Shown here piece after piece: positions 33,411 through 50,474 of a DNA stretch of 64,000 nt. Under the pieces are notes generated by a model. That model had not been told where the DNA came from. It worked only from the letters and a program-made list of their open reading frames with translations, and searched no databases. A program made the translations under genes and the position numbers. Source of the DNA: Candidatus Bipolaricaulota bacterium (lineage in GTDB: Bacteria; Bipolaricaulota; Bipolaricaulia; M55B111); NCBI GenBank assembly GCA_021735245.1, contig JAIPHJ010000003.1, positions 15,717 to 79,716 of the forward strand, written 5' to 3'. Numbering within the stretch: position 1 is the stretch's first letter; each line of letters starts with the position of its first letter.

Positions 33411-34418
33411 ATGCAGACAGCAATATTAACATATAAATCTAGCCTCAAAAATTTAGGTAATAACGGTAGAAACAGCAAAACCAATGCTGGGCGAGATTCT
33501 GACTATTGTGATTTGTCATTGAGAGAAGCAATTAATGAATTTATCCGAGCAAAAAGGATTGCGAATCTCTCGGAGGCAACATTTAACATCTACGATTATG
33601 TTTTTGATGAGTTCACCGATTTCTGGAGCGATGATTTAAGTGTCGGAGCTTTTGATAAGGAGGATTTCAGGAGATATCTAGCAGAACTTCAAAGAAGGGA
33701 CATCAAACAAAGCACTGTCTCCATACATTACCGTAATTTGAACACTTTATTCAACTGGCTAGTTTCAGAAGACTATTTGGAGGAAAACCTGCTTAATGAA
33801 GTACCTGAGCCTAAAACCGAAGATACGAATCCAAATGTTCTAAGCGAAGACCAAGTAGACACGCTTCTGAAAACCGCAAAAACTGAAGTAAATCGGTGGA
33901 CTGGTCAACGTAACTACGTGATGTTGCTAATGTTCGTTGAAACTGGACTGCGGGTAAGTGAATTGATCTCGGCAAAAATTTCCAAATATAAACCCTCTGA
34001 GCACGAACTTACCGTATGCGGTAAAGGGAGGAAAGAAAGAATAGTTTCTTGGGGAAGCAAGGTTGCTAAACCTTTTAGGAAATGGTTAGATAGGAGAGAC
34101 GAACTCGACAAGATATATGATGACACGATATTTATTTCAGAGAACGGGGAAAAGCTAAAACGGAGAAATGTTCAGAGAATAGTTACTAGAATCCAAGAAA
34201 AAGCGGGTTTAGGGGATGAAAAGGTATCGCCTCACTGCCTTAGGAGGACCTCAGCGACTCTTGCTGCCAAGTATGGGATGAGAGAGCGTGATTTAAAAAA
34301 AGTTTTTGGCTGGTCCAAGTCAGTGACGGCGGAAAGATACGTTAACCTCTCAGGAAGGGACGTAAAAGATGCTTATGAGGAAAGCTCACCGATTGACAAT
34401 TTGTGGGGAAATGATTAA
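33411..34418 (+). CDS. tyrosine integrase (int2), paralog of int1/int3
   Basis: AGGAGG RBS. ETGLRVSE, TIFISENGEKLKRRNVQRIVTRIQEKAGL, SPHCLRRTSATLA, ERYVN. Confidence 0.9.
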   Translation: MQTAILTYKSSLKNLGNNGRNSKTNAGRDSDYCDLSLREAINEFIRAKRIANLSEATFNIYDYVFDEFTDFWSDDLSVGAFDKEDFRRYLAELQRRDIKQSTVSIHYRNLNTLFNWLVSEDYLEENLLNEVPEPKTEDTNPNVLSEDQVDTLLKTAKTEVNRWTGQRNYVMLLMFVETGLRVSELISAKISKYKPSEHELTVCGKGRKERIVSWGSKVAKPFRKWLDRRDELDKIYDDTIFISENGEKLKRRNVQRIVTRIQEKAGLGDEKVSPHCLRRTSATLAAKYGMRERDLKKVFGWSKSVTAERYVNLSGRDVKDAYEESSPIDNLWGND

Positions 34419-34529: not shown

Positions 34530-34570
34530 ATGGGTGGTTAGCTCAGCTCGGGAGAGCGCTTGCTTGACGT
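34530..34570 (+). repeat. right copy of the 41-nt direct repeat (inside the intact tRNA-Val)
   Basis: Identical to 13118-13158. Confidence 0.85.
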
Positions 34571-34608
34571 GCAAGAGGCCGCTGGTTCAAGTCCAGCACC
34601 ACCCACCA
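34532..34608 (+). tRNA. tRNA-Val (GAC), CCA encoded
   Basis: Hand-folded: acceptor gggtggt/accaccc, D-arm gctc-agctcggga-gagc, anticodon stem cttgc/gcaag with loop ttGACgt, T-arm gctgg-ttcaagt-ccagc, then discriminator A and CCA. Confidence 0.92.
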
Positions 34609-34680
34609 AGCTCACCTTAATCCCCGGCAGTCGGGGCAAATAGCGCTTAAAAAATTTTCTGCTTGCTTCCGAATATTTAC

Positions 34681-35679
34681 ATGAACTGGCGCAAGCAAGC
34701 GTACGGGTCCCCCCCTAAAAATCACGATTTTTCAGACGAGAGGGAAGGCAAAAAAGCGATCCCTCAGCTTAGGCAAGATGCCACCCTAGATGAGGCTGTG
34801 GAAGATTTTACACTTATGGCTAAGGTAGAAGGTCGGGCTGACCAGACTTTAAAACTCTACGACTACGTGTTTGAAAACTTCTCGGAAGCTGTGGGCGAGA
34901 AAACCCAAATTGGGGATATTGAAAAGAGGGATGTTAGAAAGTACCTCGCCAATCTGATGGACGACGGATTGAAGAATACATCTGTCGCAATACACCACCG
35001 GGTACTGAATGCGTTTTTCACTTGGCTCGTAGATGATTCTTACATAAATAAGTCCCCAACAGAAGATGTAAAGGAGCCGAAAACTCCAAGCAAGTTCCCG
35101 AAGTGTCTGGACGAGGAGCAAGTCGATGAACTCCTTGAGGCCGCGCGGAGCAGGAAACGTGAGTGGTCCGGCTACCGCAACTACGCCATGCTTATCGTCT
35201 TCCTCGATACCGGTCTCCGGTTGGACGAATTTGTAAATGCTACCCTGGAAGACCTGGACATGAAGAGGAGGTCAATTAAAGTCCATGGAAAGGGAGCAAA
35301 GGATAGGAAAGTCTTCTTCGGAAAGAGGACATTCAACTGCCTCCGGCACTGGCTGAGGATACGGGAAAAAGTTGACAAAGTCTGGGACGATACCATATTT
35401 ATCTCCCAGAACGGTGACAAACTTAAGAAGAGGAATGTTCAGAGACTAATCACGAGAATCCAAGATAGGGCAGGCCTGGAAGATGTTCAGGTTTCACCCC
35501 ACGTTCTAAGGCACACAGCGGCCACTTTTGCGGTTCAAAACGGACTGGACGCATTCTCCCTCAAGCGGCAGTTTGGATGGGAACAAATGAGGACTGCGCT
35601 GCGCTATGTCCATATGAGTGACAAAGCCTTACAGGAGTCCTATAATAACTCTTCACCGATGGATAATTTTGAAAGCTAA
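34681..35679 (+). CDS. tyrosine integrase (int3), close paralog of int1
   Basis: Start set at ATG 34681 (the track ORF begins at a TTG at 34663). DTGLRLDE, TIFISQNGDKLKKRNVQRLITRIQDRAGLED, SPHVLRHTAATFA, LRYVH. Long identical strings shared with int1. Confidence 0.9.
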   Translation: MNWRKQAYGSPPKNHDFSDEREGKKAIPQLRQDATLDEAVEDFTLMAKVEGRADQTLKLYDYVFENFSEAVGEKTQIGDIEKRDVRKYLANLMDDGLKNTSVAIHHRVLNAFFTWLVDDSYINKSPTEDVKEPKTPSKFPKCLDEEQVDELLEAARSRKREWSGYRNYAMLIVFLDTGLRLDEFVNATLEDLDMKRRSIKVHGKGAKDRKVFFGKRTFNCLRHWLRIREKVDKVWDDTIFISQNGDKLKKRNVQRLITRIQDRAGLEDVQVSPHVLRHTAATFAVQNGLDAFSLKRQFGWEQMRTALRYVHMSDKALQESYNNSSPMDNFES

Positions 35680-35728
35680 TCTGTTTAAGAGCTTTCAATC
35701 ATCGAGCAGGAGATTGAGAACGTAAACG

Positions 35729-35756
35729 AGAGGTGTTAAAAAGCACCTCTTTTTTT
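35729..35756 (+). terminator. Rho-independent terminator after int3
   Basis: agaggtg-ttaaaaag-cacctct followed by TTTTTT. Confidence 0.8.
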
Positions 35757-35952
35757 GCTCCAAAAAGCCCCCGGACCTCTTTTAACCATGCTAGGGACTA
35801 CTTTAGCAATCCAGCGGACTGAATCTTCGGGGTAAAAACCCCCGGCGAGGTTTTTTACCCTACTAAACTACCCCCTATAAAAAAGGACCGCCCGCTTTAC
35901 CCCCTGAAGCACAAAGTCCTTACCAGGAGGTACAGACTTTGGCTTCTTCCCC
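35729..35952 (+). ncRNA. structured non-coding module, copy A (function unknown)
   Basis: Paralogous to 45767-45994. Conserved hairpins at 35809-35824, 35830-35860 and 35912-35941; no ORF. Confidence 0.45.
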
Positions 35953-36185
35953 AAAGAGGAGGAAATAAACAACCAAAGTTGAAATCACCCAAAAGTCTAT
36001 GCTGGAGGAGAAAAAGAAAAAAATCGATCGAAAATTGAAAGTGTTGGCGAAGGTATTTTTGGCAATAATTTTTCGCAAAAAACTGGGTACTTGAAAAATG
36101 GAAGTTTCACTTGAGATAAATTAAGGAAAGATTAACCTCAACTATGCAGACATTTATAAACACTTAAAAGTTCAGGTTAGAAATC

Positions 36186-39100
36186 ATGAGTTTACAAGGA
36201 GCCCGAAAGGGTTATTTATATCAAGATCTAATAGTCGCAACCCAACTTGTTGATGTTATATTGGGCGAAACAGATAAAGTGTGGGTTGATGAGAAAAAAA
36301 CTAACCCGGACAAATTTGATGATTTTGCCTCAAGGTCTATCCAGGATGATCATGAGCTAATTCAAATAAAACATACTGATCAAGATAAAAGATTACTGGA
36401 ATTACAAGATTTTAATAATAGTGATAATAGTGACCCTTATTTAGAAGATTTATTATCAACTGCAATTGCTTATAAAGAAGGTCCGGGGGCTGATGCATCT
36501 AATATTACTTTTCGTTATTTCGCTAACTATGGAGAACCAAAAGAAAAAATCAAGCAACTTTTATCGGAACCGGGAGAGTCTCTTCCTCCTCTTCTTTCTG
36601 GTGACCAAACTAGGCGTTTTAAATTCGATGTTAACACTCTTTGGTCATTTATTGGCCAGGAGGGTGATATTAAGGATCATTTTGGCTCCTTACGTGAAAA
36701 TTTTGACGAGGAAGACGTAAAGTGGTTTTTAAAGAGGTTTGTAATTGAAGTGGGCGCCCCTGAAGCTAGTTTCGATTCAAGAAAACCAGGAGAGCTCGAA
36801 GGATTGCTGATTAACCGGCTAAAACAAGAAGTTGGTGCGGGCTCTTATCCAAATACACATCGCGACCCGATTGACGTCGCCGCAGCACTAATTGAAACTG
36901 CTAAAGGAGCAAGGGTAGGGGAAGTCCATATTACTCGTCAAGAGTTACTAAAAAGTACGAGATTGCAGAGTGACTTTGGTTCTGTCTCTAAAGCTAATCC
37001 GGTAAACAAGAACATTGAAGTTACTCGGACTGAAGCTACTGAAGAGGTTATCAGCAAATCTGAACTAGCTGCAGATAACGGTATACCTCTCCTTATAACT
37101 GGTCCACCTGGCCACGGGAAATCGTGGATCATGAAGCAAGTATCAAAAAATTTAGATAATCAATGTTGGGATGTAGTGGAGCATTATTGTTATATTGAAG
37201 GTTCAGAACAAGAACGGGAGGCTCGGGTAAAAACTAGTTCGATAATAGGGAGCTTCATTAAAAGGCTTGAAGAGAAGTTTCCAAATGTCGTAGAGGAGAA
37301 ACGCCCGCGGTATGCTGCTACAGTTGAAAAATTAGAAAACATTTTACAGGGAATTTTAACAAAATATCCGGAAAAGAGTATAGCGGTTATAGTTGACGGG
37401 TTAGATCACGCTACTAGGGTTCGTGGCAGGAACACAAATGAATTAGATCCTGCCAGAATAATTGCTAATAATTTAGCAAAAATTGATCTGCCCCTGAACA
37501 CTACTCTGATAGTAGCTAGTCAACCGGGAGAACACCTTGAACCATTGAGGGAACTGGAGGCAATAGAAATGGAGGCACCACCTTTTTCCCGGGAAGACTT
37601 AAAAGAGCTTGCTCAAGCATTGGGAGTTTTACAAAAGACGAGTGAAGCTTCAAAACCAACGCAAAGCCTAATAGAACCTGAGAATGACAGCCTTCAAAGA
37701 GATTTTTTCGATGCCTTAGAAGAGCGTTCGGCAGGGAATGCTCTTTACGCTACTTACCTTTGCCAAGAACTACTTGGTTCTTCGAAAGCCCAGATAGACC
37801 CCGTCCAGATTATCTGGGATCTGCCCGAGTTTGATGAGAACCTCGAAGGTTATTATGAATATTTATATACTAAGTTAGGGGAAAGTCATGTTGCAGAACT
37901 TTTAGGCTTAGTAGAATTCACAATTACAAAAGACGAAATTGCGGACATTAAAAATATCCGACCCGAATTCATAGGGAATGTTCTTACAACACTTAGACCG
38001 GTTCTAAAGGAAACTCAAAGTGGGTACGGAGTTTATCACGAATCATTCTCCCGATATTTAACAAAAAAACTTGAGAAAAACCCCGAAATAAAAGCTGGTT
38101 TACTCGATGAAGTAATTGATTGGTTAACTGGTATAGGGTTGTTTACGGATGGACGTGCATACCGGTTCTTGCTACCTACAAAAGCTAAAGCAGGTTACGA
38201 CCAAGAAGTTGTTAAACAAGTTGACAAAGATTTTCTTGTAAACTCAGTAGAAGCTGGTTTTATGCCTTCAGCTATTATTAAAAACATTGAAACTGCAAGT
38301 AAGTGTGCTGGAAACACGGGTAATTGGCCAGCTTTAGCAAGATTTGTTGAACTGTCCAAAGCTGCAGCAAGCTACGAATACGAAAGAATTGATATCCTTA
38401 TAGAATTTTTTGATGTATTAACTGAGCAGATTGAAGCAGATAAGGTAGCCGAACGCTTGCTTTTTGGTGGGAAAACTACTGTTCCCTCTAGAGAAGGGTT
38501 ACAGCTTTGTAAAAAGGTGGATGAACACGGGGTGGTGGCTCCTTGGGAAAAGTACATAGATATTTATGAAAAGGAGCAAGAGGAAAATAACACGTCTTAT
38601 GGAGAAGCTTCCGAAAAGCGAGTTGCATTAGCATATCTCCGGGGGAAGTTAAGAACTATTTTGGACAAAGCTTCTGAAATAAGGAAGACTGATGAGGATG
38701 GTCCCGAGGTTATTTTCCTTGTTTCTGGGGATAATTTAATAGAACCAGATGATAAAACGATAAATGAGCAGTTAGAAAAGGAAAAGATTTTTAGCCTGGA
38801 TAGACTTGCTGATTGGATAAATAATAACGACGGTTTGCCTGCGGATGAAATAGTTGGGACCGTCTGGGATGTAATTGGCCCACCTGTTTTACCTGAGTTA
38901 TTTGACCTACTTCAAGATCCTTTCACGTATAAACTGGCGTTTGCAGAGAAAGTAGATTCTGAGAATCCAACCTCGATAGAACCTTCAGCAACGGGCATTG
39001 CTTGCTCGGTAGCTGAGGGCTCCATACCAACCGGAAGTGTAAACAGGCTTTTCGAAATGAATGTCCCTTTAAAAAAGATTTCCTCTGGTGAAGACGAAGA

Positions 39101-42100
39101 CCTACAAAATCCACTAATTGAAAAAACCAAAAACCTCCAGGAAGAAAATGCGCACCTTGAACCTGAAAGAATTAAAGACTGGCTGGACATATGCAAGATC
39201 AATGCAAGACTCGACCCTTCTGGAATAGACGAAGCGAAAAGTATTCTATCCGGAGAAGGTTGGTACCCTTGTTGGTTAAGTTTTGTGCTAGACCTTTGTA
39301 AAGCTGAAGAGAAAGAAGACAATAATGAAAAGTCTAAGGCAGCTTTAGAGGCACTGAATATATTGACTCAAGATGTAAGGCCTTTTGCCGGAAGCCCTAG
39401 GGCAAGTGACCTACACTCTATTCGGGGAATTATCAAATCGACCATTGGTCGTGCTCTACAACTTATAGAAGATGAAGAATGGTCTCCCGCTTTAGAGGTA
39501 CTTAAAACAATTGGCAAGAGACTCGGTCTCAAATTACGAGGAGCAATGGCGGGCCCAGTACGGATAGATTCACTACTTGAACTAATAATCAATAATAATA
39601 ATTCTGCTCGCCAAGAAACTAGTATGGCATATTTAGATTCCATTATATCAGAGCATTCGGAAGAACAATATTACGGGAATTTAGCACGCTTTCACCTTTT
39701 TAGAGCTAGACTTGCAATGGCAGGAAACGATTCTGCCAAGGTGGAAGAAGAATGGAACAGTGCCTGTGAGTTGTTTACTTCTTACCGTTTTCATAAGGAT
39801 ACTACTATTTTTGAATTACTTGAACCACTACCTTCGCTAATAAATGAGGATGAACTTCATTCCCGTGTTCTACTTGAAAAAACCCAGTCACTTTGTCTAC
39901 GAGCACTGAACCATTCCGACGGCAAGGAAACGAATGGCGCCCTTCCAAAATGGTGGAAGTTACTCGCAGAGGCTGACCCTCTTGGTTTGGTTCAAATTAT
40001 TGGTCCAGAGTTGCTAGATGATTGTAATATGCCGCAAGAAAGATTAGATAAAACACGACTGGATTTGTGGCGCGCCCACCGCCAAAAAGTAAACCCTTTG
40101 GTTGCCGGGGCATTAAGGCTTACCCTAATGTCTGGTCTTGAAAAAGAGGATCCGGATTTAATGGAACGGCTGCTCAATAGTTTAGATGATGAAAATAATA
40201 CGAGATTTCTGGCTAAAGCACTCTTATCTAGAGTGGATGAGCGACCACTTCAATACTCTAATTCTGGAAGCAATGAATTGTTAAAGAAGGACTCTCAATA
40301 TGTACAGCAGTTGAATGAACTTGCTGAGAAAAACAATATTCGAACACTCAACCACAATCGCCTGTCAAATTTATCCCAGAATACTAGGAAAAATAAGTTT
40401 GGAAGATCCCCGGAGAAGCAATCTACCCAAGAATTCCTAGACAGCAAAATTATTAGAAGTTTTGGCAAAGGAAAAACTGGGCTTCGTGAAATTATCAGAA
40501 CTTGGCATAATTCGACTATCAATAACTCTGGATCAAAGTGGGCCGTAGATAGGTTTGTAAATCTCATTGGCTACCGGATGCATGAGCTTATCGAAAAAGA
40601 CATGGTAGACGAGGTAAGAACTGCTATTCGAAGGTTAGCTTCTATCAACTACTCAGATTCTAAAGACATGGAGCTTCTATCTAAACTAGGGAAAGGTTTC
40701 GAGAGATTGGGAAGGGAAGATCTGACCGCTCTCACCTACACCCTAAGATGGACCAGAGCAAGAGGTGGAGGTGGTTGGCTTACGTTCGGAGGAAAAGAAG
40801 GCCTAGACGATCTCTCTAAAGCAGCTTCGATTAATTCTGATCTAACCTTGCATTTAGTTGCTGAGGAAGTTGGCCGGGCCATTGCAAGTGATCCTATTGC
40901 CGTAAACGGAATTTCACAAGCACTCATTTTCGCATTTGCGCACATTGATTTTGGTGAGTTATTTACAAGTTCGTCTGTTGAAATCGCGTTTGATTGCTGG
41001 GAAGAAGCATTTTCGATAATTGACTCGCGATTACCTCGAGTAGGAGACCGAGATGACCCATCACCGAAATATGAAAATTTAACTCAATTACCTCCAAGGG
41101 AAAGTTATTTTCCTAAAGAGATGGTGAGGTCAATAGCTCAAAACGAAGGAAAAGTTTCCCGCCAGATAGAATTTAATAAAATTCTTTCTGCTGCTACCGT
41201 TGCTGGTCTTGCGCATCCGGGTAGAGAGCAAAAGCGTCGTTCTCTAATTGCCATAAGTATGTTGCTGGAAGAAAGCCCCGAGTCAATCGCTAGTGGTATC
41301 AAAATGAGCCTCGATACAATTTCCGATTGTTCAACATTGTCCTGGCTTTTAAGTTATTTGAAACAATTAAATTGCAATTTGGAACCCGTATTAAGGCACT
41401 GTAAACCCGAGCTAAGAGCTCTACTTAAATCAAATAAATTAACAGTGCGAGTTCTTGCGAGGAAGCTGCTAAAAACAATTCAAGACGATCTTCCCTCGCC
41501 TCCAGCAACAGAACCAGCAGGGAAGTTGTTTAGACATTCCAGCAGCCTTGTTTCAAGATTTGGAAAAACTGATAGTGAAGTGAAGCAGGATGCCAAAGAA
41601 GAGCATGTAAAGATAGCAAAATCAATTGTAAAAGAATTCGCAGAAAGTAGAATCGCGAAAGCCGAACAGTTAGTCCCAAATTTACGGAGGGAGGTCATGA
41701 ATCAGCTTGTTGCAAGGGTTTCCTCTGATATTTTCCAGGAAAGGTTTCAAGCGCAAATCGACGCCCTCTCCTCTGGAAATAAAAACAGTTTGCCTAATGC
41801 GATATTAGAAGACTTTGAGACTACGGAAGAAATTTTACAAAGGCTTGCGGCAGGGGCACGTATTGAGAAGGCACAAAAAGGTAAAATAATTAAAGACGCC
41901 ACTTCTTGGGAAGACCGTCTTGCGCAAACAATTCTAGATTCACCCAGTTTACCCCTTAAAATTGAAAAAACACGTAGACCAAGGCCAGAGAAACCAATTC
42001 CCCCGGATAAAGGTGCTAAAGTGTGGCAGGTAGCGGAGGAGTCCGCAATAACCGGACAGTACAAGGAAAAAGAATCCATCGTGGATTCTTCAATTTATAA

Positions 42101-42737
42101 AGATTCTATTAGTGCTACACTAAAAATAAATTCAGGAAAAGATTTACCTACGGTTAATAGCGGGCCTAGAGAAGGGTGGCGAATTATTGCCTCGGCAGAA
42201 CGCAGAGAGATAAACCAAGGTCCAGCTCATGATGAAGACTTTGTTACAGGTAGCAGATTTTGCGGAATTGAACATAGACCCAAAAATATTACAGAAGGGC
42301 TCGATGTTTTCCCCTTTGCTGCTGGAAATGCTAAATATTGGATCCAGGACTTGCGAAGACAATATTATAACAACAAATTTGAAAAAAGAGCCACCCCGCT
42401 GGTTGGAATAGATCTTGATAGTGATTTTCTAGGAGATATGGAAAGCGGTTTAGGGTGGTCAGTACCATTATTGGTGCCAACCGTTTTATTTAAGCAAATT
42501 TTACAGCTTAGCACATCTACAAAAGGGCTCACCCTTGAAAAAAATGGGCGTGTTGCTATGGAGTTAATTACTTGGAGGAGCTATTACACTACAAGCGACT
42601 ATGAACTCAAAAGACCACAGCTATATGGTTCGCAGGTAATTCTGCGACCAGATGTTTATGAAGCCTTACTTGAGATCAAGGGGGCCAAAATAGTGTTTCG
42701 CGAGTTCATTCGAGGATCCTTAGGGTTAACTGAATAA
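36186..42737 (+). CDS. giant STAND-type NTPase with N-terminal Cap4/DUF4297-like PD-(D/E)xK nuclease domain (2183 aa; Avs/bNACHT-like defence protein)
   Basis: N-terminus GARKGYLYQD...DDF...ELIQIKH (G-[FY]-x-[FY]-Q and D...E-x-K). Walker A LLITGPPGHGKSW (nt 37101-37124). Walker B IAVIVDGLDHA (nt ~37386-37409). About 1700 aa of helical-repeat-like sequence, then a distinct beta-like C-terminal ~300 aa. Confidence 0.8.
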   Translation: MSLQGARKGYLYQDLIVATQLVDVILGETDKVWVDEKKTNPDKFDDFASRSIQDDHELIQIKHTDQDKRLLELQDFNNSDNSDPYLEDLLSTAIAYKEGPGADASNITFRYFANYGEPKEKIKQLLSEPGESLPPLLSGDQTRRFKFDVNTLWSFIGQEGDIKDHFGSLRENFDEEDVKWFLKRFVIEVGAPEASFDSRKPGELEGLLINRLKQEVGAGSYPNTHRDPIDVAAALIETAKGARVGEVHITRQELLKSTRLQSDFGSVSKANPVNKNIEVTRTEATEEVISKSELAADNGIPLLITGPPGHGKSWIMKQVSKNLDNQCWDVVEHYCYIEGSEQEREARVKTSSIIGSFIKRLEEKFPNVVEEKRPRYAATVEKLENILQGILTKYPEKSIAVIVDGLDHATRVRGRNTNELDPARIIANNLAKIDLPLNTTLIVASQPGEHLEPLRELEAIEMEAPPFSREDLKELAQALGVLQKTSEASKPTQSLIEPENDSLQRDFFDALEERSAGNALYATYLCQELLGSSKAQIDPVQIIWDLPEFDENLEGYYEYLYTKLGESHVAELLGLVEFTITKDEIADIKNIRPEFIGNVLTTLRPVLKETQSGYGVYHESFSRYLTKKLEKNPEIKAGLLDEVIDWLTGIGLFTDGRAYRFLLPTKAKAGYDQEVVKQVDKDFLVNSVEAGFMPSAIIKNIETASKCAGNTGNWPALARFVELSKAAASYEYERIDILIEFFDVLTEQIEADKVAERLLFGGKTTVPSREGLQLCKKVDEHGVVAPWEKYIDIYEKEQEENNTSYGEASEKRVALAYLRGKLRTILDKASEIRKTDEDGPEVIFLVSGDNLIEPDDKTINEQLEKEKIFSLDRLADWINNNDGLPADEIVGTVWDVIGPPVLPELFDLLQDPFTYKLAFAEKVDSENPTSIEPSATGIACSVAEGSIPTGSVNRLFEMNVPLKKISSGEDEDLQNPLIEKTKNLQEENAHLEPERIKDWLDICKINARLDPSGIDEAKSILSGEGWYPCWLSFVLDLCKAEEKEDNNEKSKAALEALNILTQDVRPFAGSPRASDLHSIRGIIKSTIGRALQLIEDEEWSPALEVLKTIGKRLGLKLRGAMAGPVRIDSLLELIINNNNSARQETSMAYLDSIISEHSEEQYYGNLARFHLFRARLAMAGNDSAKVEEEWNSACELFTSYRFHKDTTIFELLEPLPSLINEDELHSRVLLEKTQSLCLRALNHSDGKETNGALPKWWKLLAEADPLGLVQIIGPELLDDCNMPQERLDKTRLDLWRAHRQKVNPLVAGALRLTLMSGLEKEDPDLMERLLNSLDDENNTRFLAKALLSRVDERPLQYSNSGSNELLKKDSQYVQQLNELAEKNNIRTLNHNRLSNLSQNTRKNKFGRSPEKQSTQEFLDSKIIRSFGKGKTGLREIIRTWHNSTINNSGSKWAVDRFVNLIGYRMHELIEKDMVDEVRTAIRRLASINYSDSKDMELLSKLGKGFERLGREDLTALTYTLRWTRARGGGGWLTFGGKEGLDDLSKAASINSDLTLHLVAEEVGRAIASDPIAVNGISQALIFAFAHIDFGELFTSSSVEIAFDCWEEAFSIIDSRLPRVGDRDDPSPKYENLTQLPPRESYFPKEMVRSIAQNEGKVSRQIEFNKILSAATVAGLAHPGREQKRRSLIAISMLLEESPESIASGIKMSLDTISDCSTLSWLLSYLKQLNCNLEPVLRHCKPELRALLKSNKLTVRVLARKLLKTIQDDLPSPPATEPAGKLFRHSSSLVSRFGKTDSEVKQDAKEEHVKIAKSIVKEFAESRIAKAEQLVPNLRREVMNQLVARVSSDIFQERFQAQIDALSSGNKNSLPNAILEDFETTEEILQRLAAGARIEKAQKGKIIKDATSWEDRLAQTILDSPSLPLKIEKTRRPRPEKPIPPDKGAKVWQVAEESAITGQYKEKESIVDSSIYKDSISATLKINSGKDLPTVNSGPREGWRIIASAERREINQGPAHDEDFVTGSRFCGIEHRPKNITEGLDVFPFAAGNAKYWIQDLRRQYYNNKFEKRATPLVGIDLDSDFLGDMESGLGWSVPLLVPTVLFKQILQLSTSTKGLTLEKNGRVAMELITWRSYYTTSDYELKRPQLYGSQVILRPDVYEALLEIKGAKIVFREFIRGSLGLTE

Positions 42738-42893
42738 ATTGTTTTGTAGGTCCCTCTAATTTAAATAAGGTTTGCTACAGAGTGGTTAAAAAGATAAAAT
42801 CTATTAATTTACTAATAATATCTGTTTTAAATCGCATTTGTAATTAGGCAGTTTTAATACAGGATAATTTTTTCTTGAGTTTAATTTTTAAAC

Positions 42894-42917
42894 CCCCGCC
42901 AGCCGGGGAGATTTTTT
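42894..42917 (+). terminator. Rho-independent terminator after the giant gene
   Basis: ccccg-ccagc-cgggg followed by agaTTTTTT. Confidence 0.65.
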
Positions 42918-43119
42918 ATTTGAAAACCGCTTGGTCTTTTCTCGCACTTTTAATTATGTAGCAGCATCCCGGCCTGGCGTAAAGGACAACCCAAACGCTT
43001 ACACGTTCCAGCTCGTTCCTCCTTGACCCCAGTCCGGCCCGGCTGCGTTCTCGCAGGATAGCGAGAAAAGCCAAGCTCGCAAGTAACTGTAGTCGGCTTT
43101 GAAAGGCAACGTTTCAACC

Positions 43120-43476
43120 ATGACGAAAAACCAAACTGACGCACGCCAGGTGGTCAACTACGAGCTCTACGCCAACCAGACCCTCCTGGTAAACGACCTG
43201 TTAAAGCACGGCCTTATCTCATGGGATAAGGCGTACAGCTCCGGAAGCGGCATAGAAGAGGGCACTGAGATATTCGAGTGGTGGCTGGTCTCAAATGATT
43301 TAGCTCGATTGCTGGTTGACGAGGAAGAAACGGTCATCGAGGAGTACGGCTGCTACTGGTGGGGCAGGACGACCACCGGACAGGCAGTCTACATGGACTA
43401 TGTTATAGAAGAGATTGCCGCTTCCTACTTCCCGGAACCGGACACGGACGCGACACGGACCGGTGCCAGAGGGTAG
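43120..43476 (+). CDS. hypothetical protein (118 aa)
   Basis: ATG at 43120 preferred over the TTG at 43099. Visibly GC-richer than its neighbours. Followed by a hairpin (43488-43510, contains plus-strand G-U pairs) and a T-rich tract. Confidence 0.55.
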   Translation: MTKNQTDARQVVNYELYANQTLLVNDLLKHGLISWDKAYSSGSGIEEGTEIFEWWLVSNDLARLLVDEEETVIEEYGCYWWGRTTTGQAVYMDYVIEEIAASYFPEPDTDATRTGARG

Positions 43477-43680
43477 TAACTACTGGGCGGGGCAGTTCAC
43501 GCTGTCCCGTCCATTTTCTTTTTTCGTTTCATGTTATCATGACTTCAATTGATGTAAACCTTCCGCGAAAAAATCTCCCGGCTGGCTGCCCGGCACGCCC
43601 CAACCCCCTGAAATACAGTAAGGAAGGTGAAATGTCAATATTTGACATTTCACAAAATAAAAAAACTGTGCTATAATGAA

Positions 43681-43713
43681 AAGTAGCTGGATTCCTTCCA
43701 GCTACTTCTTTTT
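43681..43713 (+). terminator. terminator-like hairpin
   Basis: 10-bp perfect stem aagtagctgg / ccagctactt, 7-nt loop, then a T-rich tail (cttttt). Lies directly after a TGCTATAAT box, so it could instead be an operator or attenuator. Confidence 0.4.
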
Positions 43714-43885
43714 CTTTCCTTTATAAAATGACCCTTTCCTCTTCCCGGCCGACCCGTCCTGGCGAAGAGAGGACTCCTTCGGGCCCAGTCAAGGAGACCG
43801 GCCTCCCAGGAGCCTGACGCCCGCAGGTTCCGGGGGGTGGAAGGGTCAGACCCCACTATTACTACATTTACATAGAGGTGGTAGC

Positions 43886-44182
43886 ATGCCAAAAGAAGTT
43901 GGTGTTACCTTCAACCAGGCCAAACGTGCGGCAAGGAGCCTCAACTACCGCAGGCGGTTAAACGATCAGCTACCCGAACTCGAGGGTAAACTGGTACGTT
44001 ACATCCGCCAGCAGGTAGGTGAAAGTTCGGACGTTTCTGCGCTAATCGGACCTTACAAGGTTAAACTATATGAGGGTGAGATCTCCATCAAGGAAGTCGA
44101 CCCTATAGATCCAAACCAACTGAAGTTCGAGTTCTTCGACGAAAACGTAGAGGAGGTAGAAGATGAAACAAGGCATGGTTGA
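43886..44182 (+). CDS. hypothetical protein (98 aa), first gene of a four-gene coupled operon
   Basis: GAGGTGG RBS; overlaps the next ORF. Confidence 0.55.
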   Translation: MPKEVGVTFNQAKRAARSLNYRRRLNDQLPELEGKLVRYIRQQVGESSDVSALIGPYKVKLYEGEISIKEVDPIDPNQLKFEFFDENVEEVEDETRHG

Positions 44183-44528
44183 GAAAGTAAAGAAGGTCAA
44201 CTCCAACGAGTCAAGCTATTATAAGTTAAAAATTGACGGAGAAACCTATAGCTTGTGGTCCAGTCTGCCCAAGACGGTCGGTAAGGGCAGCGAGGTAAAG
44301 TTCAAATACCAGACCAGAGAAAAGGACGGCAAAGAGTTTAAGAACATCACGGAGCTTAAACCACTCGAGAACGGCAAACCCGACCACACCGACAAGCGGA
44401 TACTGGCACTTTCCATAAGCGGCTGGCTGCTGGATAAAAAAGACGAACCAATTGAACTGATGGAACTGTTGAAAAAGGCGGCCCGAATCCATTCCTGGCT
44501 TAAAGGTGATCCGGATGCAATTGAGTGA
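44163..44528 (+). CDS. hypothetical protein (121 aa)
   Basis: Overlapping starts and stops with both neighbours; no family recognised. Confidence 0.55.
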   Translation: MKQGMVEKVKKVNSNESSYYKLKIDGETYSLWSSLPKTVGKGSEVKFKYQTREKDGKEFKNITELKPLENGKPDHTDKRILALSISGWLLDKKDEPIELMELLKKAARIHSWLKGDPDAIE

Positions 44529-44877
44529 GTACGCAAACCAGAAGATAAAGCTGATTCAAGGCATATCCGGTGTCTTTCACACTCCATATATCATTGAAGG
44601 TGAAATTTCTTCTACCGGCAAGACGATAGAGGTAGAAGAAAAGCACGGAAGCAGAACTTACCGGCTGGATACCGAGAAAATCCTTACCGGTGGAGTAGAA
44701 GTGAGACGGGCTACCACGTTTAAGCTCTATACGAGAAAGAATTACCTCTCCCAAAAGAGAGCAAACTACGATCCGGCAAACTACCGGAATACGGATACCG
44801 ACGAAGTTGCCGAGGAGATGGCCAGAGGAGACTTCGTAAAACCGACCCACCAAGAAATCCAAGATGGAGGTGGATAA
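44506..44877 (+). CDS. hypothetical protein (123 aa)
   Basis: Coupled to both neighbours; the true start may be the internal Met at 44515. Confidence 0.5.
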   Translation: MIRMQLSEYANQKIKLIQGISGVFHTPYIIEGEISSTGKTIEVEEKHGSRTYRLDTEKILTGGVEVRRATTFKLYTRKNYLSQKRANYDPANYRNTDTDEVAEEMARGDFVKPTHQEIQDGGG

Positions 44878-45065
44878 TGGAAGGCAGACTAGCGGTAGAG
44901 TTGACCGACTCAGGTAAAGAGTCCTCACCGGATCCAGACGAGGAGGACCCGGAAGAGAAGATCTTCAACGCAATCTTCGCGGAAGAAAAAGAAGAAAAGC
45001 TGGAACGGATAAGAATGTTAGTTGAAGTGGAGCTGATGGAACGGGACCTAAAAGAGGAAAGCTAA
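44877..45065 (+). CDS. hypothetical acidic protein (62 aa)
   Basis: ATG overlaps the upstream stop (ATAATG). Confidence 0.45.
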   Translation: MEGRLAVELTDSGKESSPDPDEEDPEEKIFNAIFAEEKEEKLERIRMLVEVELMERDLKEES

Positions 45066-45155
45066 GTTCTTTTTTATTCGAAGTCAAAAATCCACGCCGA
45101 AATTTTACCCCCGCTGACCCTCATAATTCCAAACAACTTTCATTGAGGTGATAGA

Positions 45156-45320
45156 ATGGATAGGAACGAGGAATTGAGGAAGCTGAAGCAAGCAGTTTAC
45201 GAAGGAGCAGTAGATTATACCTGCCCGAACTGTGGTTCGATGATAAGAGGTGAGCCGGACGCCAAGAGACTGTGGTGTCCGACCTGTGAGAAGCACGTAG
45301 AGGTAACGCCGGTCGTTTAG
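45156..45320 (+). CDS. small zinc-ribbon protein (54 aa)
   Basis: Own translation: MDRNEELRKLKQAVYEGAVDYTCPNCGSMIRGEPDAKRLWCPTCEKHVEVTPVV. GAGGTG RBS; followed by a terminator; below the track cutoff. Confidence 0.6.
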   Translation: MDRNEELRKLKQAVYEGAVDYTCPNCGSMIRGEPDAKRLWCPTCEKHVEVTPVV

Positions 45321-45354
45321 ATACGGCTAAGATAAATTCAACAACCAATTTTCG

Positions 45355-45381
45355 AGAGGTGCTAAGCGGCACCTCTTTTTT
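45355..45381 (+). terminator. Rho-independent terminator
   Basis: agaggtgc-taagcg-gcacctct followed by TTTTT. Same stem sequence as the terminators at 35729 and 45767. Confidence 0.8.
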
Positions 45382-45480
45382 CGGAGTACCGTTAGTTATA
45401 AGTTAGAAAGACCCGAGCGAGTTTTTTTGCTAATTTTCTGAAAATCTTTAATACTTAATTGGCTGAGAAAGGAGGTCAAA

Positions 45481-45660
45481 ATGCCAAAATGGGTGATCGA
45501 CGAGGGTGATAGTTGTCCAAAATGCGGAGCAGACATAGAAGTTTTGGTGGATGAGGACAATAAGTTTAATGTGGAAGAAGGGATTGAATTTCCTAAGGCG
45601 GAAAGGTGCACGGAATGTAAGTGGGAACATAAACTGGAAGGGAGTAAAACAAACGGGTGA
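45481..45660 (+). CDS. small zinc-ribbon protein (59 aa)
   Basis: Own translation: MPKWVIDEGDSCPKCGADIEVLVDEDNKFNVEEGIEFPKAERCTECKWEHKLEGSKTNG. AGGAGG RBS. Confidence 0.6.
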   Translation: MPKWVIDEGDSCPKCGADIEVLVDEDNKFNVEEGIEFPKAERCTECKWEHKLEGSKTNG

Positions 45661-45766
45661 AATGGCCAGTTAGAATAAATTAACTACTATGGGACTGACT
45701 TTTTGGATTGTTGTAGGAAAGAGAGAAAAGATTTTTGAGATATTTTAGCCTTATCAAAGTATCTAA

Positions 45767-45794
45767 AGAGGTGCTCAAAAGCACCTCTTTTTTT
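45767..45794 (+). terminator. Rho-independent terminator
   Basis: agaggtg-ctcaaaag-cacctct followed by TTTTTT. Confidence 0.8.
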
Positions 45795-45994
45795 ATTGCT
45801 TCAAAAAAGCCCCCCGGACCTCTTTTAACCATGCTAGAGACTAGATTAACAATTCAGCCAAACTGAATCTTCGGGGTAAAAACCCCGGCGAGGTTTTTAC
45901 CCTACTAAACTAGTCCCTATAAAAGAGGACCGCCCGCTTTACCCCCTGAAACACAAAGTCCTTACCAGTAGGTACAGACTTTGGCTTCTTCCCC
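45767..45994 (+). ncRNA. structured non-coding module, copy B
   Basis: Collinear with 35729-35952. Hairpins at 45852-45868, 45874-45902 and 45954-45983. Confidence 0.45.
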
Positions 45995-46011
45995 AATTAA
46001 GAGGTGTAAGA

Positions 46012-46151
46012 AATCACAAAAACCAGCTCCGCAGTACCACCGATCCAAACCCCGGCGTGGTTTGGCGGTTGCATTCTCGTTTGTTTACTTCAGAAACTGA
46101 AGACCATGCTAAACAAACTCCGAAAACTACTTTGGAGCAGGTTTTGTGATT
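46012..46151 (+). ncRNA. additional ~140-nt multi-hairpin element directly after copy B
   Basis: Closing stem 46012-46030 / 46134-46151 (about 17 bp with one bulge and one mismatch). It encloses ccaaacc-ccggcgt-ggtttgg and gtttgttta...taaacaaac, which contains cttcag-aaa-ctgaag. Confidence 0.35.
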
Positions 46152-46506
46152 AAAAAAATTGCACCCTACTCAGCGGGTTTTACTTTCATATTTAGCTAGG
46201 CTCTCTCAGAAGTGGTCAAGGCAGCCTCTCATTTACATTCTAAGCGGTTTTTGACCAGGATCGGATGGTTACCACATTGGCTAAAGCAAGTTCGCTGTTT
46301 ATTATCTGATAAAAAGCTGGAGTCACAATTTCTTTTCACACTACTTACGCTTCTTATCCTTTTATAGGTTTACCTAGTTTGTGAAAACATGACTCGACCG
46401 CTACCATTAATGGGCTTCCCGTGGCACCTGAGGATGTTTAGGAGCTTGGGGTTGAAATTAGAGCTTGAAAGGAAAAGCGAGTCGGTAGTGAATCGGAGGT
46501 AAACTT

Positions 46507-47106: not shown

Positions 47107-50100
47107 ATGGAACAAAGGCTCGAAGAGGGACAGCTCGTGGAAGCACCTTTCTTAAGTGGTAGAGGGGAACTAAAGTCAGTTAAGAAAAGGCCCGGCTACC
47201 ACAAACTCGAAGTATTGATAGAAGATACCAACCAACTCAAAACGTTCACCCTTACCGAAGAGGAAGTAGATAAGATAAAAACAATTGACCAAACGGAGAG
47301 GATGATTGAGGACAGCGAGGACTTTTTCCTGGGGATAGAAGCTTCCCGGATCCGGCTTGCCCACCAGTTTGACCCAATTCTCGCAGTAAATACCGCAAAG
47401 ATCGACCCCCTACCGCACCAGATGGAGGCAGTTTACGAGTACGCGCTGAAGAACAGCCCCAGAGTGAGGTTCATGATCGCTGACGACGCCGGTGCCGGAA
47501 AGACAATCATGGGCGGGCTGTTAATTAAGGAACTACAGTACCGCAACCTGGCAAATAGGATACTCATAGTTGTCCCCGGGCACCTAAAGTACCAATGGCA
47601 AAGGGAAATGAAAGATAAGTTTGATACCAATTTCCGGATGATAAACCGAAATGCAATTAAAACATCCTTTTCGGAAAATGTCTGGGAAGAACACAACCGC
47701 TGTATAGCCACAGTAGACTTCCTAAAGCAGGACGATATTCTAAATTCTATAAAGGGAACCTACTGGGACCTGGTAGTGGTAGATGAGGCCCACAAGATGG
47801 CCGCTTACAAGTACGGAGATGACGTAAAGAAAACGGACAGGTACCAGGCCGGCGAAGTTCTATCCGATCAATCGACTCACATGCTTTTCCTTACGGCCAC
47901 ACCACACAAAGGAGATAAGGAAAACTTCCGTCTATTTCTTAACTTACTCAGGCCCGGCTACTTCTCAAAAGAAGGCTTAATAGAGAAATCCGTCCAACAA
48001 GGAGACAACCCAGTATTCATCAGGCGGTTGAAAGAGGACCTCCGGCGGTTCGACGGCTCAAAGATATTTCCTCCCCGCCACGTCATCACGGCAAAGTTCA
48101 ACTTGACGAAAGCAGAGCGGCATCTCTACGAAGGCGTAACTCGTTATGTCCAGGATTACTACGACCAGGCAAAGGAGAAAAGACATATCGGATTTGCCAT
48201 GATGATTCTCCAGCGCCGGTTGACCTCCAGCACAAATGCCATACTGGAATCACTAAAGACAAGAAAAGACAAGCTACACGACCTAATGGAACTGCCAGAA
48301 AAGATACAGCAAAGCGACGAGTACGACGAAGTACTGAGAAAGTCCGATGAGCAGCTGGAAGAAGAGATGGAGGAGATGGAGGAAGAAAAACGCTGGGAAC
48401 TGGAACAAAAGCTTACCAATCTAACTATTGCCAACAACCTAGAAGATGTGGAGAAGGAAATTGAGAAGGTCAGTGAGCTAATAGAGCGGGCGAAGAAAGT
48501 AAAAGAACAGGGAATAGAAAACAAACTGAAGAAGCTAAAAGAGGAAGTCCTCTCGGAACTACACGGTAGGAAGCTGCTCATCTTTACCGAATTCAAGGAT
48601 ACTTTGGAATACCTGGTCGAGAAGCTTACCGAGTGGGGCTACAGCACGACACAAATCGAAGGCGGAATGAAGATGGAGGAAAGAGTTGACGCCGAGAAGG
48701 AGTTCAAAGAAGACAAGCAGATAATGGTTGCAACTGAAGCCGCAGGTGAGGGAATTAACCTCCAGTTCTGCTCGCTTATGGTCAACTACGATATTCCCTG
48801 GAACCCGACCCGATTAGAGCAGCGCATGGGAAGGATTCACCGGTACGGTCAGGATGATGAAGTCTACATCTGGAATATAATAAGTAAGGACACCAGAGAG
48901 GGCCAGATTTTGGGTAAGCTATTTACCAAACTTGAACGGATGCGCAAGGACCTTGGCACGGATAGGGTGTTCGATATAATAGGTGACGTAACACCCGGTA
49001 CTGACTTCGGCCAGATGTTCAAAGAAGCGATCTTCGAACAGCGAAAGATCGACGAGATATACGGCGACATAGATCGAACCAGCAGCGACAAGGCGGATGA
49101 GCTTCTCGAGAAGGCAACTGCCGAGGGCTTGGCAACAAAGCACCTAAACTATACAGGAATGGAAAAGCTACGCATGAAGGCCAAGGAAAACCGCCTGGTC
49201 CCCGAATACATAAAGGACTACTTCCTCAGAGCGTTCAACAAACTTGAGGAAGGAGAGATAAAACAGGTAAGGGATTACTACCGCATTGAATCCGTTCCTT
49301 ATGAGCTGAGAAAGTATAATAACGATGCAGAGTTTCTGGACCAATACGGGGAAATAAAGAAACTATACAAAAAGGTTGCTTTCGATAAGGAAACTGCAGG
49401 CCAGGAAGGCTACGAGCAAATCAAACCCGGACACCCTCTTCTGGAGGCACTAAATAAGAAGACTTTACAGAAGTTGAAAAACCCTGGACAGTTTGCCCTA
49501 TTTGCCGATTCCACTGGTAAGCTAGAAGGTACTTTATGGTTCTATAGGGGAGAAATAGAAGATGGCTCTGGTGCTGTTGCAGGCAAGAAGATTTTTTGTC
49601 TCCACGAAAACCCCGACGGTGAAGTAAATCAAGTAAATCCGTCCGTACTCTGGGATCTGGATCCAAAGGATCCGGAAGAAAGAGGTAATTTAGAGGTAGA
49701 TATCGAAGACTACAAAGGTTCCGAGGAAAACGCGGAAGACTATTTGGTTAATAAGCTATTATTTCCTTACAAGGAAGAACTGGTTGAAGAACGAGAAGAA
49801 GAGGCCAAGATCAAGAGGAAATACGGCTTAAAATCACTTGACTACCTTATAAGCGAGTCCAATGATAAACTGCTCGAATACGACCAGAAGCTTTCGGAAG
49901 GCAAAGACTACGATATGGTAATTAGACAAGAGGAAAAAAGAAAGCAAAGGTTAGAACGCAAAAGAGATGAACTAGAGAAAGAGATCGAACAGGAAACAAA
50001 TTTGAAGGTCTCAGGAAGCACTGTAAAAGGCAAAGCGATAGTTGTGCCTACAAAAGAAGAGTCTGAGACAACTGGCAAGGATATGGTGTCGGATGAAGGA

Positions 50101-50472
50101 ATAGAAAAAGTTGGAATGAAGGTAACAGAGGAATACGAGGAAGACCATGGGTGGGAGCCGGAAGACGTCTCCGATGAAAATCTTGGTTTTGACGTTCGCT
50201 CTATCAAGTACGCTGAGGATGGATCAGTAGATGGAAAAAGGTATATCGAAGTCAAAGCCCGCTCAAGAGAAGGTGGAGTCCGTCTATCAGCAAACGAGTG
50301 GAAAAAGGCCAAGAGATTTAGCGATGAGTTTTGGTTATACGTAGTTATGAACGCTGGCACTAATAATCCTGAATTACGAAGGATCAATGATCCTGCAAGC
50401 AAGTTTAGTTTGGAAGAAGATATTTACGCCACCGGCTATAAAATACCGCAAGAGAACCTTAAGGAGGTTTGA
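47107..50472 (+). CDS. SNF2-family helicase with C-terminal DUF3883 domain (1121 aa)
   Basis: Motif I IADDAGAGKT, motif II VVVDEAHK, motif VI QRMGRIHRYGQ. C-terminal GFDVRS...RYIEVKARS...LSANEWKKA...FWLYVV matches DUF3883. Confidence 0.88.
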   Translation: MEQRLEEGQLVEAPFLSGRGELKSVKKRPGYHKLEVLIEDTNQLKTFTLTEEEVDKIKTIDQTERMIEDSEDFFLGIEASRIRLAHQFDPILAVNTAKIDPLPHQMEAVYEYALKNSPRVRFMIADDAGAGKTIMGGLLIKELQYRNLANRILIVVPGHLKYQWQREMKDKFDTNFRMINRNAIKTSFSENVWEEHNRCIATVDFLKQDDILNSIKGTYWDLVVVDEAHKMAAYKYGDDVKKTDRYQAGEVLSDQSTHMLFLTATPHKGDKENFRLFLNLLRPGYFSKEGLIEKSVQQGDNPVFIRRLKEDLRRFDGSKIFPPRHVITAKFNLTKAERHLYEGVTRYVQDYYDQAKEKRHIGFAMMILQRRLTSSTNAILESLKTRKDKLHDLMELPEKIQQSDEYDEVLRKSDEQLEEEMEEMEEEKRWELEQKLTNLTIANNLEDVEKEIEKVSELIERAKKVKEQGIENKLKKLKEEVLSELHGRKLLIFTEFKDTLEYLVEKLTEWGYSTTQIEGGMKMEERVDAEKEFKEDKQIMVATEAAGEGINLQFCSLMVNYDIPWNPTRLEQRMGRIHRYGQDDEVYIWNIISKDTREGQILGKLFTKLERMRKDLGTDRVFDIIGDVTPGTDFGQMFKEAIFEQRKIDEIYGDIDRTSSDKADELLEKATAEGLATKHLNYTGMEKLRMKAKENRLVPEYIKDYFLRAFNKLEEGEIKQVRDYYRIESVPYELRKYNNDAEFLDQYGEIKKLYKKVAFDKETAGQEGYEQIKPGHPLLEALNKKTLQKLKNPGQFALFADSTGKLEGTLWFYRGEIEDGSGAVAGKKIFCLHENPDGEVNQVNPSVLWDLDPKDPEERGNLEVDIEDYKGSEENAEDYLVNKLLFPYKEELVEEREEEAKIKRKYGLKSLDYLISESNDKLLEYDQKLSEGKDYDMVIRQEEKRKQRLERKRDELEKEIEQETNLKVSGSTVKGKAIVVPTKEESETTGKDMVSDEGIEKVGMKVTEEYEEDHGWEPEDVSDENLGFDVRSIKYAEDGSVDGKRYIEVKARSREGGVRLSANEWKKAKRFSDEFWLYVVMNAGTNNPELRRINDPASKFSLEEDIYATGYKIPQENLKEV

Positions 50473-50474
50473 TT

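Follow-up and report, generated by a model that had tools for sequence, protein, structure and literature searches.

A structured non-coding module repeated in an integrative element of Candidatus Bipolaricaulota, with a possible role as a single-stranded DNA promoter or priming site

Frpo1 and Frpo2 of the F plasmid are single-stranded DNA (ssDNA) promoters, 92% identical to each other, that drive early expression (PMC9849209), and Frpo homologues, present at about two per element, are located upstream of leading genes that include methylases (PMC11541004). The single-strand origin (sso) sso1 of ICEBs1 is structure-dependent and orientation-specific (PMC4595007). Almost nothing is known about the expression, copying, and exchange of mobile elements in uncultured phyla such as Bipolaricaulota. 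Here, a window of 64,000 nucleotides (nt) from a Candidatus Bipolaricaulota bacterium (assembly GCA_021735245.1, contig JAIPHJ010000003.1, positions 15,717 to 79,716; coordinates below are those of this whole stretch) was analyzed with respect to a non-coding module that occurs twice, as copies A and B, within an integrated element. The module is a portable backbone cis-element of integrative, plasmid-like Bipolaricaulota elements, and its fold is supported by covariation. Judged by sequence, it is a new family outside Rfam, without membership in the Frpo/ssi family. By analogy with Frpo1 and Frpo2, it is tentatively proposed to be an ssDNA promoter or priming element.

The likeness to the Frpo/ssi sequences of F and ColIb-P9 extends over several features. 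In each case, ~90% identical non-coding direct repeats occur within one element, each ahead of a co-oriented gene block; the repeats are intergenic and lie upstream of genes templated by the folding strand; this template or transferred strand folds better, into a stable imperfect stem-loop structure; promoter-like boxes fall in helical parts; and relatives are found across many elements. A check of the F plasmid recovered two direct repeats of ~545 nt, 90% identical and 5.4 kb apart, each ending just before a leading-gene block that points toward oriT and folding more stably as the T strand than as the coding strand (-147.6 versus -132.5 kcal/mol); the -35/-10 boxes of the F Frpo sequences were not placed by a simple scan. 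In contrast, the module has no sequence similarity to Frpo/ssi (blastn against plasmids including F), measures 192 nt (~480 nt with the extension and tail described below) versus ~330-545 nt, forms a three-way junction plus an extra hairpin instead of one long hairpin, and occurs in an uncultured phylum, where it precedes defence cargo instead of anti-defence genes. The sso sequences of rolling-circle plasmids (ICEBs1 sso1 and the pBAA1 type) are comparable in being strand- and orientation-specific non-coding stretches of about 150-300 nt, in which several stem-loops matter more than sequence and which bring RNA polymerase or primase to ssDNA; integrative conjugative elements also contain them, at times in redundant copies (PMC4595007). 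They differ in that the replication protein encoded here is of the iteron-type RepA/Rep3 kind and not a rolling-circle Rep. The loop of hairpin 2 of the module (AGCGA/AGCGT) may resemble the CS-6 motif of ssoA, but it lies on the + strand. By analogy, the module would work like the Frpo/sso class, which it resembles in strand, fold, gene orientation, and repeated copies before gene blocks.

Repeat unit, fold, and folding strand

Copies A (35729-35975) and B (45767-46010) are collinear direct repeats that align with 211 of 238 positions identical (89%), 27 mismatches, and 15 gapped columns. A profile of the pair matched each copy at E ~1e-89 in an nhmmer search that found no third copy in the window, and the sequences flanking the two copies do not align on either side. 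The repeat is real and far above chance expectation, bearing out an initial annotation, made from the sequence alone, that had described two collinear repeats of ~225 nt. The naturally conserved unit is shorter than that description: metagenome depth (see below) changes sharply at 35762/35763 and 35954/35955, and the natural unit is therefore 192 nt. The covariance model built for it scores the copy A core (35763-35954) at 209.7 bits and the copy B core (45805-45996) at 213.4 bits. What had been taken as the start of each repeat is a separate, variable neighbor. Upstream of copy A it is the intrinsic terminator (35729-35756, + strand; GAGGTG-loop-CACCTC followed by T7) of the integrase gene at 34663-35679, and upstream of copy B it is a terminator (45767-45794, + strand) that follows a 59-residue zinc-ribbon open reading frame (ORF) at 45481-45660. 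The terminator before copy A was called in a terminator scan, and the stem, which forms repeat family D3, recurs at 35729, 45355, and 45767, as previously noticed. A terminator is thus the constant neighbor of the module, outside its conserved core. A conserved small ORF inside the module was also considered and was rejected on account of 1-nt indels between the copies at 35815-35818, 35839, and 35851.

Within the copy A core, a long-range stem termed S1 (35764-35784 pairing with 35878-35898) is separated by a conserved ACCATGC bulge (35785-35791, between the 5′ arms) from a helix termed P1 (35792-35808 pairing with 35861-35877). S1 and P1, both absent from the initial annotation, close hairpins 1 and 2 into one three-way-junction domain, and hairpin 3 is separate. 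The three hairpins themselves are present as originally described. Hairpin 1 (35809-35824; ATCCAG-CGGA-CTGAAT, with a variable loop) is 100% paired on the minus strand, and its C35811.A35822 mismatch in copy A becomes a T-A pair in copy B. Hairpin 2 (35830-35860) has 11-bp arms, with an additional T in copy A, and a conserved loop, CC(G/A)GCGA. Hairpin 3 (35906-35946) is made up of a long bulged stem, an internal loop, a short stem, and a purine-rich loop, which reads AGGA in copy A and AGTA in copy B. In copy B, hairpins 1 to 3 lie at 45852-45868, 45874-45902, and 45948-45988. Single-sequence folds of copy B (wB) and of the homologous loci L015 and L007, described below, give the identical architecture. 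Two promoter-like boxes on the + strand fall in helical parts of this fold: a -35-like TTTACC (35854-35859; 45896-45901 in copy B) within the 3′ arm of hairpin 2 and, 16 nt after it, a -10-like TATAAA (35876-35881; 45918-45923 in copy B) at the P1/S1 boundary, as read from the sequences. The boxes are positionally conserved, L007 having TTTATC/AATAAT at the same columns.

The fold was tested on a six-sequence alignment against 500 column shuffles and against controls in which pairing partners were slid by 1-3 columns. Over 67 pairs, 89.3% were paired (92.3% on the minus strand), compared to 34-51% in the slid controls, and changes on both sides were seen in 19 of the 67, values reached by 0 of 500 shuffles, for an alignment that holds only five independent sequences, with two close pairs, and from which the structure was itself derived. 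Compensatory changes occur in every long helix. In S1 they are CG to GC at 35776/35886 and 35777/35885 and AT to TA at 35764/35898; in P1, with double changes in 5 of 15 pairs, GC to TA at 35794/35875; in hairpin 2, GC to AT at 35832/35858 and AT, TA, and CG at 35838/35852; and in hairpin 3, with double changes in 6 of 16 pairs, CG, GC, and TA at 35912/35941. Variants within natural populations likewise co-vary at 35795/35874 (G35795>A with C35874>T) and 35796/35873, and many of them repair mismatches specific to copy A (35811 C>T, 35862 A>G, 35871 C>G, and 35883 A>G). The fold of the module is real and supported by covariation, with substitutions keeping the hairpins far more often than breaking them. 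An alternative pairing of GGGGTAAA with CTTTACCCC that the initial annotation had proposed was not upheld: it is broken in the diverged homologue L007 (GGGATAAAA versus CCTTAACCCC) with no compensation, unlike hairpin 2, which is itself compensated there.

Copy B is followed by an extension (46013-46150), a closed multi-hairpin domain that is conserved in loci L015, L016, L007, and L008; the 140-nt element noticed earlier after this copy is thus real. The extension is 92.9% paired, with most pairs invariant and covariation not significant, and its first hairpin, CCAAACC-CCGGCGT-GGTTTGG, has a loop motif in common with hairpin 2. After it comes a conserved tail (46152-46267, containing CATTCTAAGCGGTTTTT), as indicated by metagenome depth that stays elevated to 46267 and by nhmmer matches in L008 and L015.

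The pattern of non-Watson-Crick pairs differs between the strands. Read on the + strand, the helices contain A.C at 13 pair sites versus G.T at 4, to which the extension adds 3 and 1, respectively; an A.C on the + strand is a G.T on the minus strand. One-sided helix differences between copies A and B, and between L015 and L016, are all of the A.C type on the + strand. Folding energies computed with RNA parameters favor the minus strand in every homologue. DNA parameters favor it in most homologues, the two strands being equal in L007, and give it energies of -40 to -48 kcal/mol (for copy A, -40.8 versus -29.5 kcal/mol on the + strand). Since the A.C/G.T asymmetry and the better folding of the minus strand agree, the folded strand is probably the minus strand, that is, the template strand of the co-oriented downstream genes (the + strand carries every gene from 34663 to 64000).

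A fold of this kind could also belong to a structured RNA, namely a minus-strand non-coding RNA of ~200 nt (~450 nt with extension and tail) or a + strand 5′ leader that would arise from the internal TTTACC/TATAAA promoter or by read-through and would act on the cargo operon, for example through attenuation, processive antitermination, or stability. Covariation-backed multi-domain folds are a hallmark of functional RNAs, the G.U tolerance of the minus strand suits RNA as well as DNA, the + strand is A/C-rich where it is unpaired, a trait of many RNAs, and the long conserved stretch between module and ORF (hairpin 3, extension, and tail) would be sensible as a leader. No Rfam family matches, however: at the gathering threshold the window yielded only its two tRNAs, and a permissive search with both copies gave chance-level matches far below the cut-offs. 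For a minus-strand RNA gene, neither a conserved promoter nor a conserved terminator emerged from the promoter and terminator scans. At the right, where such a promoter would be expected, copy A has neither extension nor tail and the flanks of the two copies are unrelated; at the left, there is no convincing terminator, the T-run after S1 being missing in L007. A + strand RNA would need to start upstream of 35763, yet the terminator ends 6-12 nt before the module, and it is on the + strand that the A.C mismatches fall. A leader initiated at the internal boxes would begin at ~35888, and because the long-range stem spans this putative promoter, such a transcript would be unable to form the three-way-junction domain. 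Folded DNA is favored here because a minus-strand RNA lacks a conserved promoter and terminator and a + strand RNA is disfavored by the terminator before the module, whereas DNA needs neither signal. The structured RNA is accordingly regarded as possible but somewhat doubtful, close behind folded ssDNA in rank, and the leader role suggested in the initial annotation is weakened by the strand asymmetry in favor of the minus strand.

Homologous loci and spread in metagenomes

Homologues of the module were found outside the locus on contigs that encode relatives of the adjacent integrase (L015, L016, L007, and L008), the usual order being integrase, terminator, module, 140-nt extension, tail, and variable cargo. 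In L015 and the nearly identical L016, this series ends in a gene with a bMG3 domain. L007 has two tandem integrases, a module ~70% identical to the window copies, and the extension. In L008, two integrases are followed by a hybrid to which the module contributes its 5′ half and the extension its 3′ part, ahead of sugar-metabolism genes; the fusion point is the 17-mer AAACCCC(N)GCG(N)GGTTT, which module and extension have in common. The tandem integrase genes lie at the same tRNA-Val hotspot after LeuRS in L007 (10001-12180), L008 (201-2322), and L015 (8547-10867). As to whether homologues always neighbor this integrase family or defence genes, a check suggested in the initial annotation, their usual position is after related integrases, and defence genes are not constant neighbors. 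Both copies do precede defence cassettes in the window, a STAND/Avs-like gene after copy A and HmaABC with GmrSD after copy B, but the association is not defence-specific, as seen from the cargo of L015 and L008. The presence of homologues elsewhere and the retention of the hairpins despite substitutions support a structured, functional non-coding module. The module marks the start of variable cargo; its behavior is that of a backbone part sited behind the integrase rather than that of a defence regulator.

L015 has the GrpE block that also stands at the end of the window and, beside it, encodes a T4 coupling protein, a Replic_Relax relaxase, and a DUF87/TrwB ATPase. The family therefore looks transferable, and by its gene content it is probably conjugative or mobilisable. 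Named homologues of the integrase are all from Candidatus Bipolaricaulota (Acetothermia). Many public assemblies stop no more than a few hundred bases past the integrase, a break for which the effect of the repeated module on short-read assembly is the probable cause. The covariance model revealed no further diverged copies in 200 kb of window and loci, and blastn against phages gave no match. Scans of viral contigs with DNA patterns and the integrase returned one chance match inside a phage gene and otherwise nothing, and scans of genome and metagenome collections with the exact 20-mer CGCCCGCTTTACCCCCTGAA returned only chance matches in unrelated coding or tRNA-flank sequence; at the stringency of a 20-mer, the lineage seems absent from these collections. 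A literature search found no such element described in Bipolaricaulota.

Twenty public metagenomes, whose sources are lake water, hypersaline lakes, brines, seawater, and sediments, contain 10-60% of the 31-mers found in the copy A region, and their contigs were mapped onto the window. In four of them, the depth of the module is 100-900 versus 0-30 outside it, the strain-specific flanks being at 0-15. Because the module is 10-200 times deeper than its strain-specific flanks, it sits in many sequence contexts. The left flanks are mostly intrinsic terminators with differing stems and loops; the right flanks differ as well, one frequent continuation being the copy-B-type extension. Around copy B, the conserved stretch is 45784-46267. 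Variation within populations is concentrated in 35788-35817 and 35862-35887, while 35889-35954 has no variant at or above 15%, hairpin 3 being the least variable part of the module in natural populations. The 3′ end of the integrase and a downstream block comprising a helix-turn-helix (HTH) gene, iterons, RepA, and a structured region are likewise elevated in depth; the module is therefore part of the element-family backbone and not tied to a particular cargo.

One marine metatranscriptome (run X24) also contains the module, at a depth of 33-100, which would fit a structured RNA. Its contigs carry no strand and extend into the upstream gene, and the depth ratio of module to integrase, ~3-5, is the same as in DNA metagenomes. 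This signal neither supports nor excludes such an RNA, since DNA carry-over or read-through could explain it.

The position of the module, usually directly after a tyrosine integrase, raises the possibility that it is a recombination site of that enzyme, either as folded ssDNA, like integron attC or the attP hairpin of CTX phage, or as a duplex core at hairpin 2 (11-bp inverted arms and a 7-nt spacer), so that blocks between copies would be exchangeable cassettes. Two direct copies do bracket ~10 kb in the window, both flanks differ among metagenome contexts, and hairpin 2 and the first hairpin of the extension have the common spacer or loop CC(G/A/T)GCG(A/T) between different arms. The hybrid of L008, with a left arm from the module and a right arm from the extension, is what a site-specific deletion would be expected to leave. 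The proportions of hairpin 2 (11 + 7 + 11 nt), at which L008 is joined, might also suit a Xer/dif-like core site of the pdif type (~28 bp, with two arms of ~11 bp and a spacer of 6-8 bp, used by a Xer-type recombinase). As in the attC repeats of Vibrio cholerae, repeated imperfect dyads beside a tyrosine recombinase bracket genes and would act as folded ssDNA with a strand preference, which for attC is the bottom strand (PMC2727003). The module nevertheless fails the defining features of attC. Whereas attC sites are 57-141 nt long, with R′′-L′′...L′-R′ boxes and an IntI-type integrase, the module is 192 nt, highly conserved in sequence, and without an R/L box pattern, and its integrase is co-oriented with the cargo and of a generic Xer/phage type (only Phage_integrase and SAM-like domains). 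Instead of an array with one site per promoterless single-gene cassette, there are only two copies, around a block of about nine ORFs with its own internal terminators. The L008 junction fits a homologous or slipped deletion across the 17-nt near-identity equally well, the identity between copies A and B runs through hairpin 2 with no mosaic break, and in run X1, from the source population, the STAND block has a depth of 13 versus 12-16 in its flanks, with no excised variant visible. A recombination site, one of the roles suggested in the initial annotation, is on balance unlikely. Still less probable is its most specific form, a folded-DNA site for swapping multi-gene defence cassettes in an integron-like system that arose independently in Bipolaricaulota elements; were it correct, the module/extension hybrid of L008 would be a footprint of such recombination.

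The initial annotation had also considered that the pair might be a relic of two related elements, and part of this view is retained. Copy A lacks the extension and has mismatches in excess of the population consensus, copy B lacks an integrase, and 45410-45527, including the start of the zinc-ribbon ORF, matches sequence that follows the integrase in locus L018. The present arrangement therefore looks like the product of recombination between related elements. The zinc-ribbon ORF with its upstream region (45410-45660), just before copy B, is homologous to L018 1314-1559, and the homologue stands immediately behind the integrase in L018, L019, and L020, with a type I restriction-modification system beyond it. 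A remnant of an integrase or of HmaA upstream of copy B was sought by tblastn and rejected, as none was found.

Possible action on single-stranded DNA

An ssDNA promoter or priming element was not among the roles proposed in the initial annotation and is ranked first here, as a provisional choice. The element would become single-stranded after conjugative entry or during rolling-circle copying, and its minus strand would then fold into the three-way-junction domain and hairpin 3. Helical segments of the fold would rebuild the -35-like TTTACC and -10-like TATAAA, at which host RNA polymerase could initiate to give a + sense RNA running rightward. This RNA might serve early expression of the cargo block behind each copy, priming of the complementary strand, or both, with the preceding terminator insulating the module from upstream transcription. 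Here we infer DNA rather than RNA as the folded molecule, polymerase recruitment, and single-strand transfer.

Several observations are consistent with this scheme. Initiation on the minus strand would give + sense RNA toward the cargo; the patch most variable in populations, 35862-35874, is the spacer between the boxes; and the near-invariant part of the module starts ~7 nt after the -10-like box. The higher metagenome depth of the module, the integrase 3′ end, and the HTH-iteron-RepA block fits a backbone function.

Other observations weigh against an ssDNA promoter or priming element. The boxes are weak (4 of 6 and 5 of 6 positions, against a consensus that may not be that of Bipolaricaulota), and a consensus promoter scan was negative. 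The minus-strand arm opposite the boxes is interrupted by hairpin 1 and the 7-nt bulge, and the model leaves unexplained hairpin 3 and the extension, which are both located downstream of its predicted start. The module is located 230-735 nt upstream of the next ORF versus ~20 nt for the F repeats, and its cargo consists of defence genes, compared to the usual anti-defence genes. The window does not reach the relaxase, oriT, and leading region of the element, making single-strand transfer an assumption. The strand test is modest (17 sites from five related sequences; one-sided binomial ~0.025), and its bias could partly reflect the A+C-rich composition of the + strand. Finally, several integrases of the family precede other cargo without a module, and blastn of 35700-36000 (word size 11) against the 72,556 plasmids of PLSDB gave no match.

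The same boxes could alternatively belong to an ordinary double-stranded promoter or operator block that was duplicated or joined by recombination, its symmetry representing protein-binding palindromes. In favor of this reading, the boxes follow a terminator and are separated by a variable spacer, the conserved backbone encodes an HTH regulator (58646-59173), and repeated upstream blocks occur elsewhere in the window (29587/30292). A precedent is Reg576 of plasmid p576, with repressor-controlled, repeated promoters of establishment genes, in which conserved repeated regions stand upstream of several gene blocks of a transferable element (PMC6294495). The operators of Reg576 are short duplex sites, in contrast to the base-pairing constraint over ~190 nt in the module, where compensatory changes involve long-range pairing over ~135 nt as well as hairpin 3; a wobble bias on one strand would furthermore be meaningless for protein binding to a duplex. 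A plain operator block is for these reasons considered improbable.

The module is, in any case, a conserved handle common to many Bipolaricaulota elements in hypersaline and other aquatic communities, placed at the start of variable cargo. If it does act as an ssDNA promoter or priming site, the Frpo/sso strategy would be in use far outside the plasmids of proteobacteria and firmicutes, and entry-triggered expression would include defence and methylase cargo and not only anti-defence genes. Should it instead be an RNA or a recombination site, it would represent a new family either way. The module can be used as a probe, in sequence and structure, for elements and cargo boundaries in metagenomes.

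Host element and neighboring features

The host element begins directly after tRNA-Val (34532-34608); the other tRNA of the window is tRNA-Cys (12989-13062). A role of the module as an att arm of the element was rejected, as it sits on the side of the integrase away from the tRNA-Val junction. From left to right, the element comprises the integrase gene (34663-35679), its terminator, copy A, a gene for a 2183-residue STAND NTPase (a weak Avs1b match confined to the NTPase region), about eight small ORFs, and a terminator; then copy B, extension, tail, HmaA, HmaB, HmaC, a GmrSD type IV enzyme, and the HTH protein; and then three 22-bp iterons, a RepA/Rep3-like gene, an inverted-repeat block, and GrpE. 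The Hma system is complete, with HmaA as helicase, HmaB as DUF1156 methylase, and HmaC as DUF499 ATPase (matches at E 1e-204 to 1e-147), and together with the GmrSD-type restriction enzyme that follows it occupies 47107-58065. The iterons (59425-59508) are directly upstream of the RepA/Rep3-like gene (59600-60508), so that a theta-type plasmid replicon is part of the integrated element.

After the RepA-like gene, an 841-nt non-coding block (60580-61420) contains nested, mostly perfect inverted repeats of 16-18 bp and folds as DNA at -252 kcal/mol, compared to -118 +/- 6 for shuffled sequences (z = -22.6). It has no Rfam match and is conserved in metagenomes along with the HTH-iteron-RepA backbone. 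Candidate identities for the block are an oriT, an origin, and a large structured element; possibly it is the single-strand-related site of the host element. Another short conserved element (36046-36113, ~68 nt, containing TTTTTGGCAATAATTTTTCGCAAAAAACTGGGTACTTGAAAAAT) lies between copy A and the start codon of the STAND gene (36186). Its depth in a brine metagenome is ~1600 versus 3.6 in the flanks, and it has a weak match in locus L017; it is a separate conserved sequence of very wide occurrence and may be the ordinary promoter or operator of the STAND gene.

The window encodes three paralogous tyrosine integrases (13265-14266, 33411-34418, and 34663-35679), the latter two being 43% identical. 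The first two mark either end of a neighboring 21.4-kb element in tRNA-Val, which has 41 nt of the tRNA 5′ half, directly repeated, as its limits (13118-13158 and 34530-34570) and encodes a DUF927 primase-helicase (30472-32985); upon its insertion, an intact tRNA-Val was regenerated on the right side. This element contains a second pair of non-coding direct repeats (29587-29680 and 30292-30385; 94 nt, 84% identical), which precede an ORF (29717-30208) and the primase gene, respectively. Repeated upstream blocks thus seem to be a habit of these elements.

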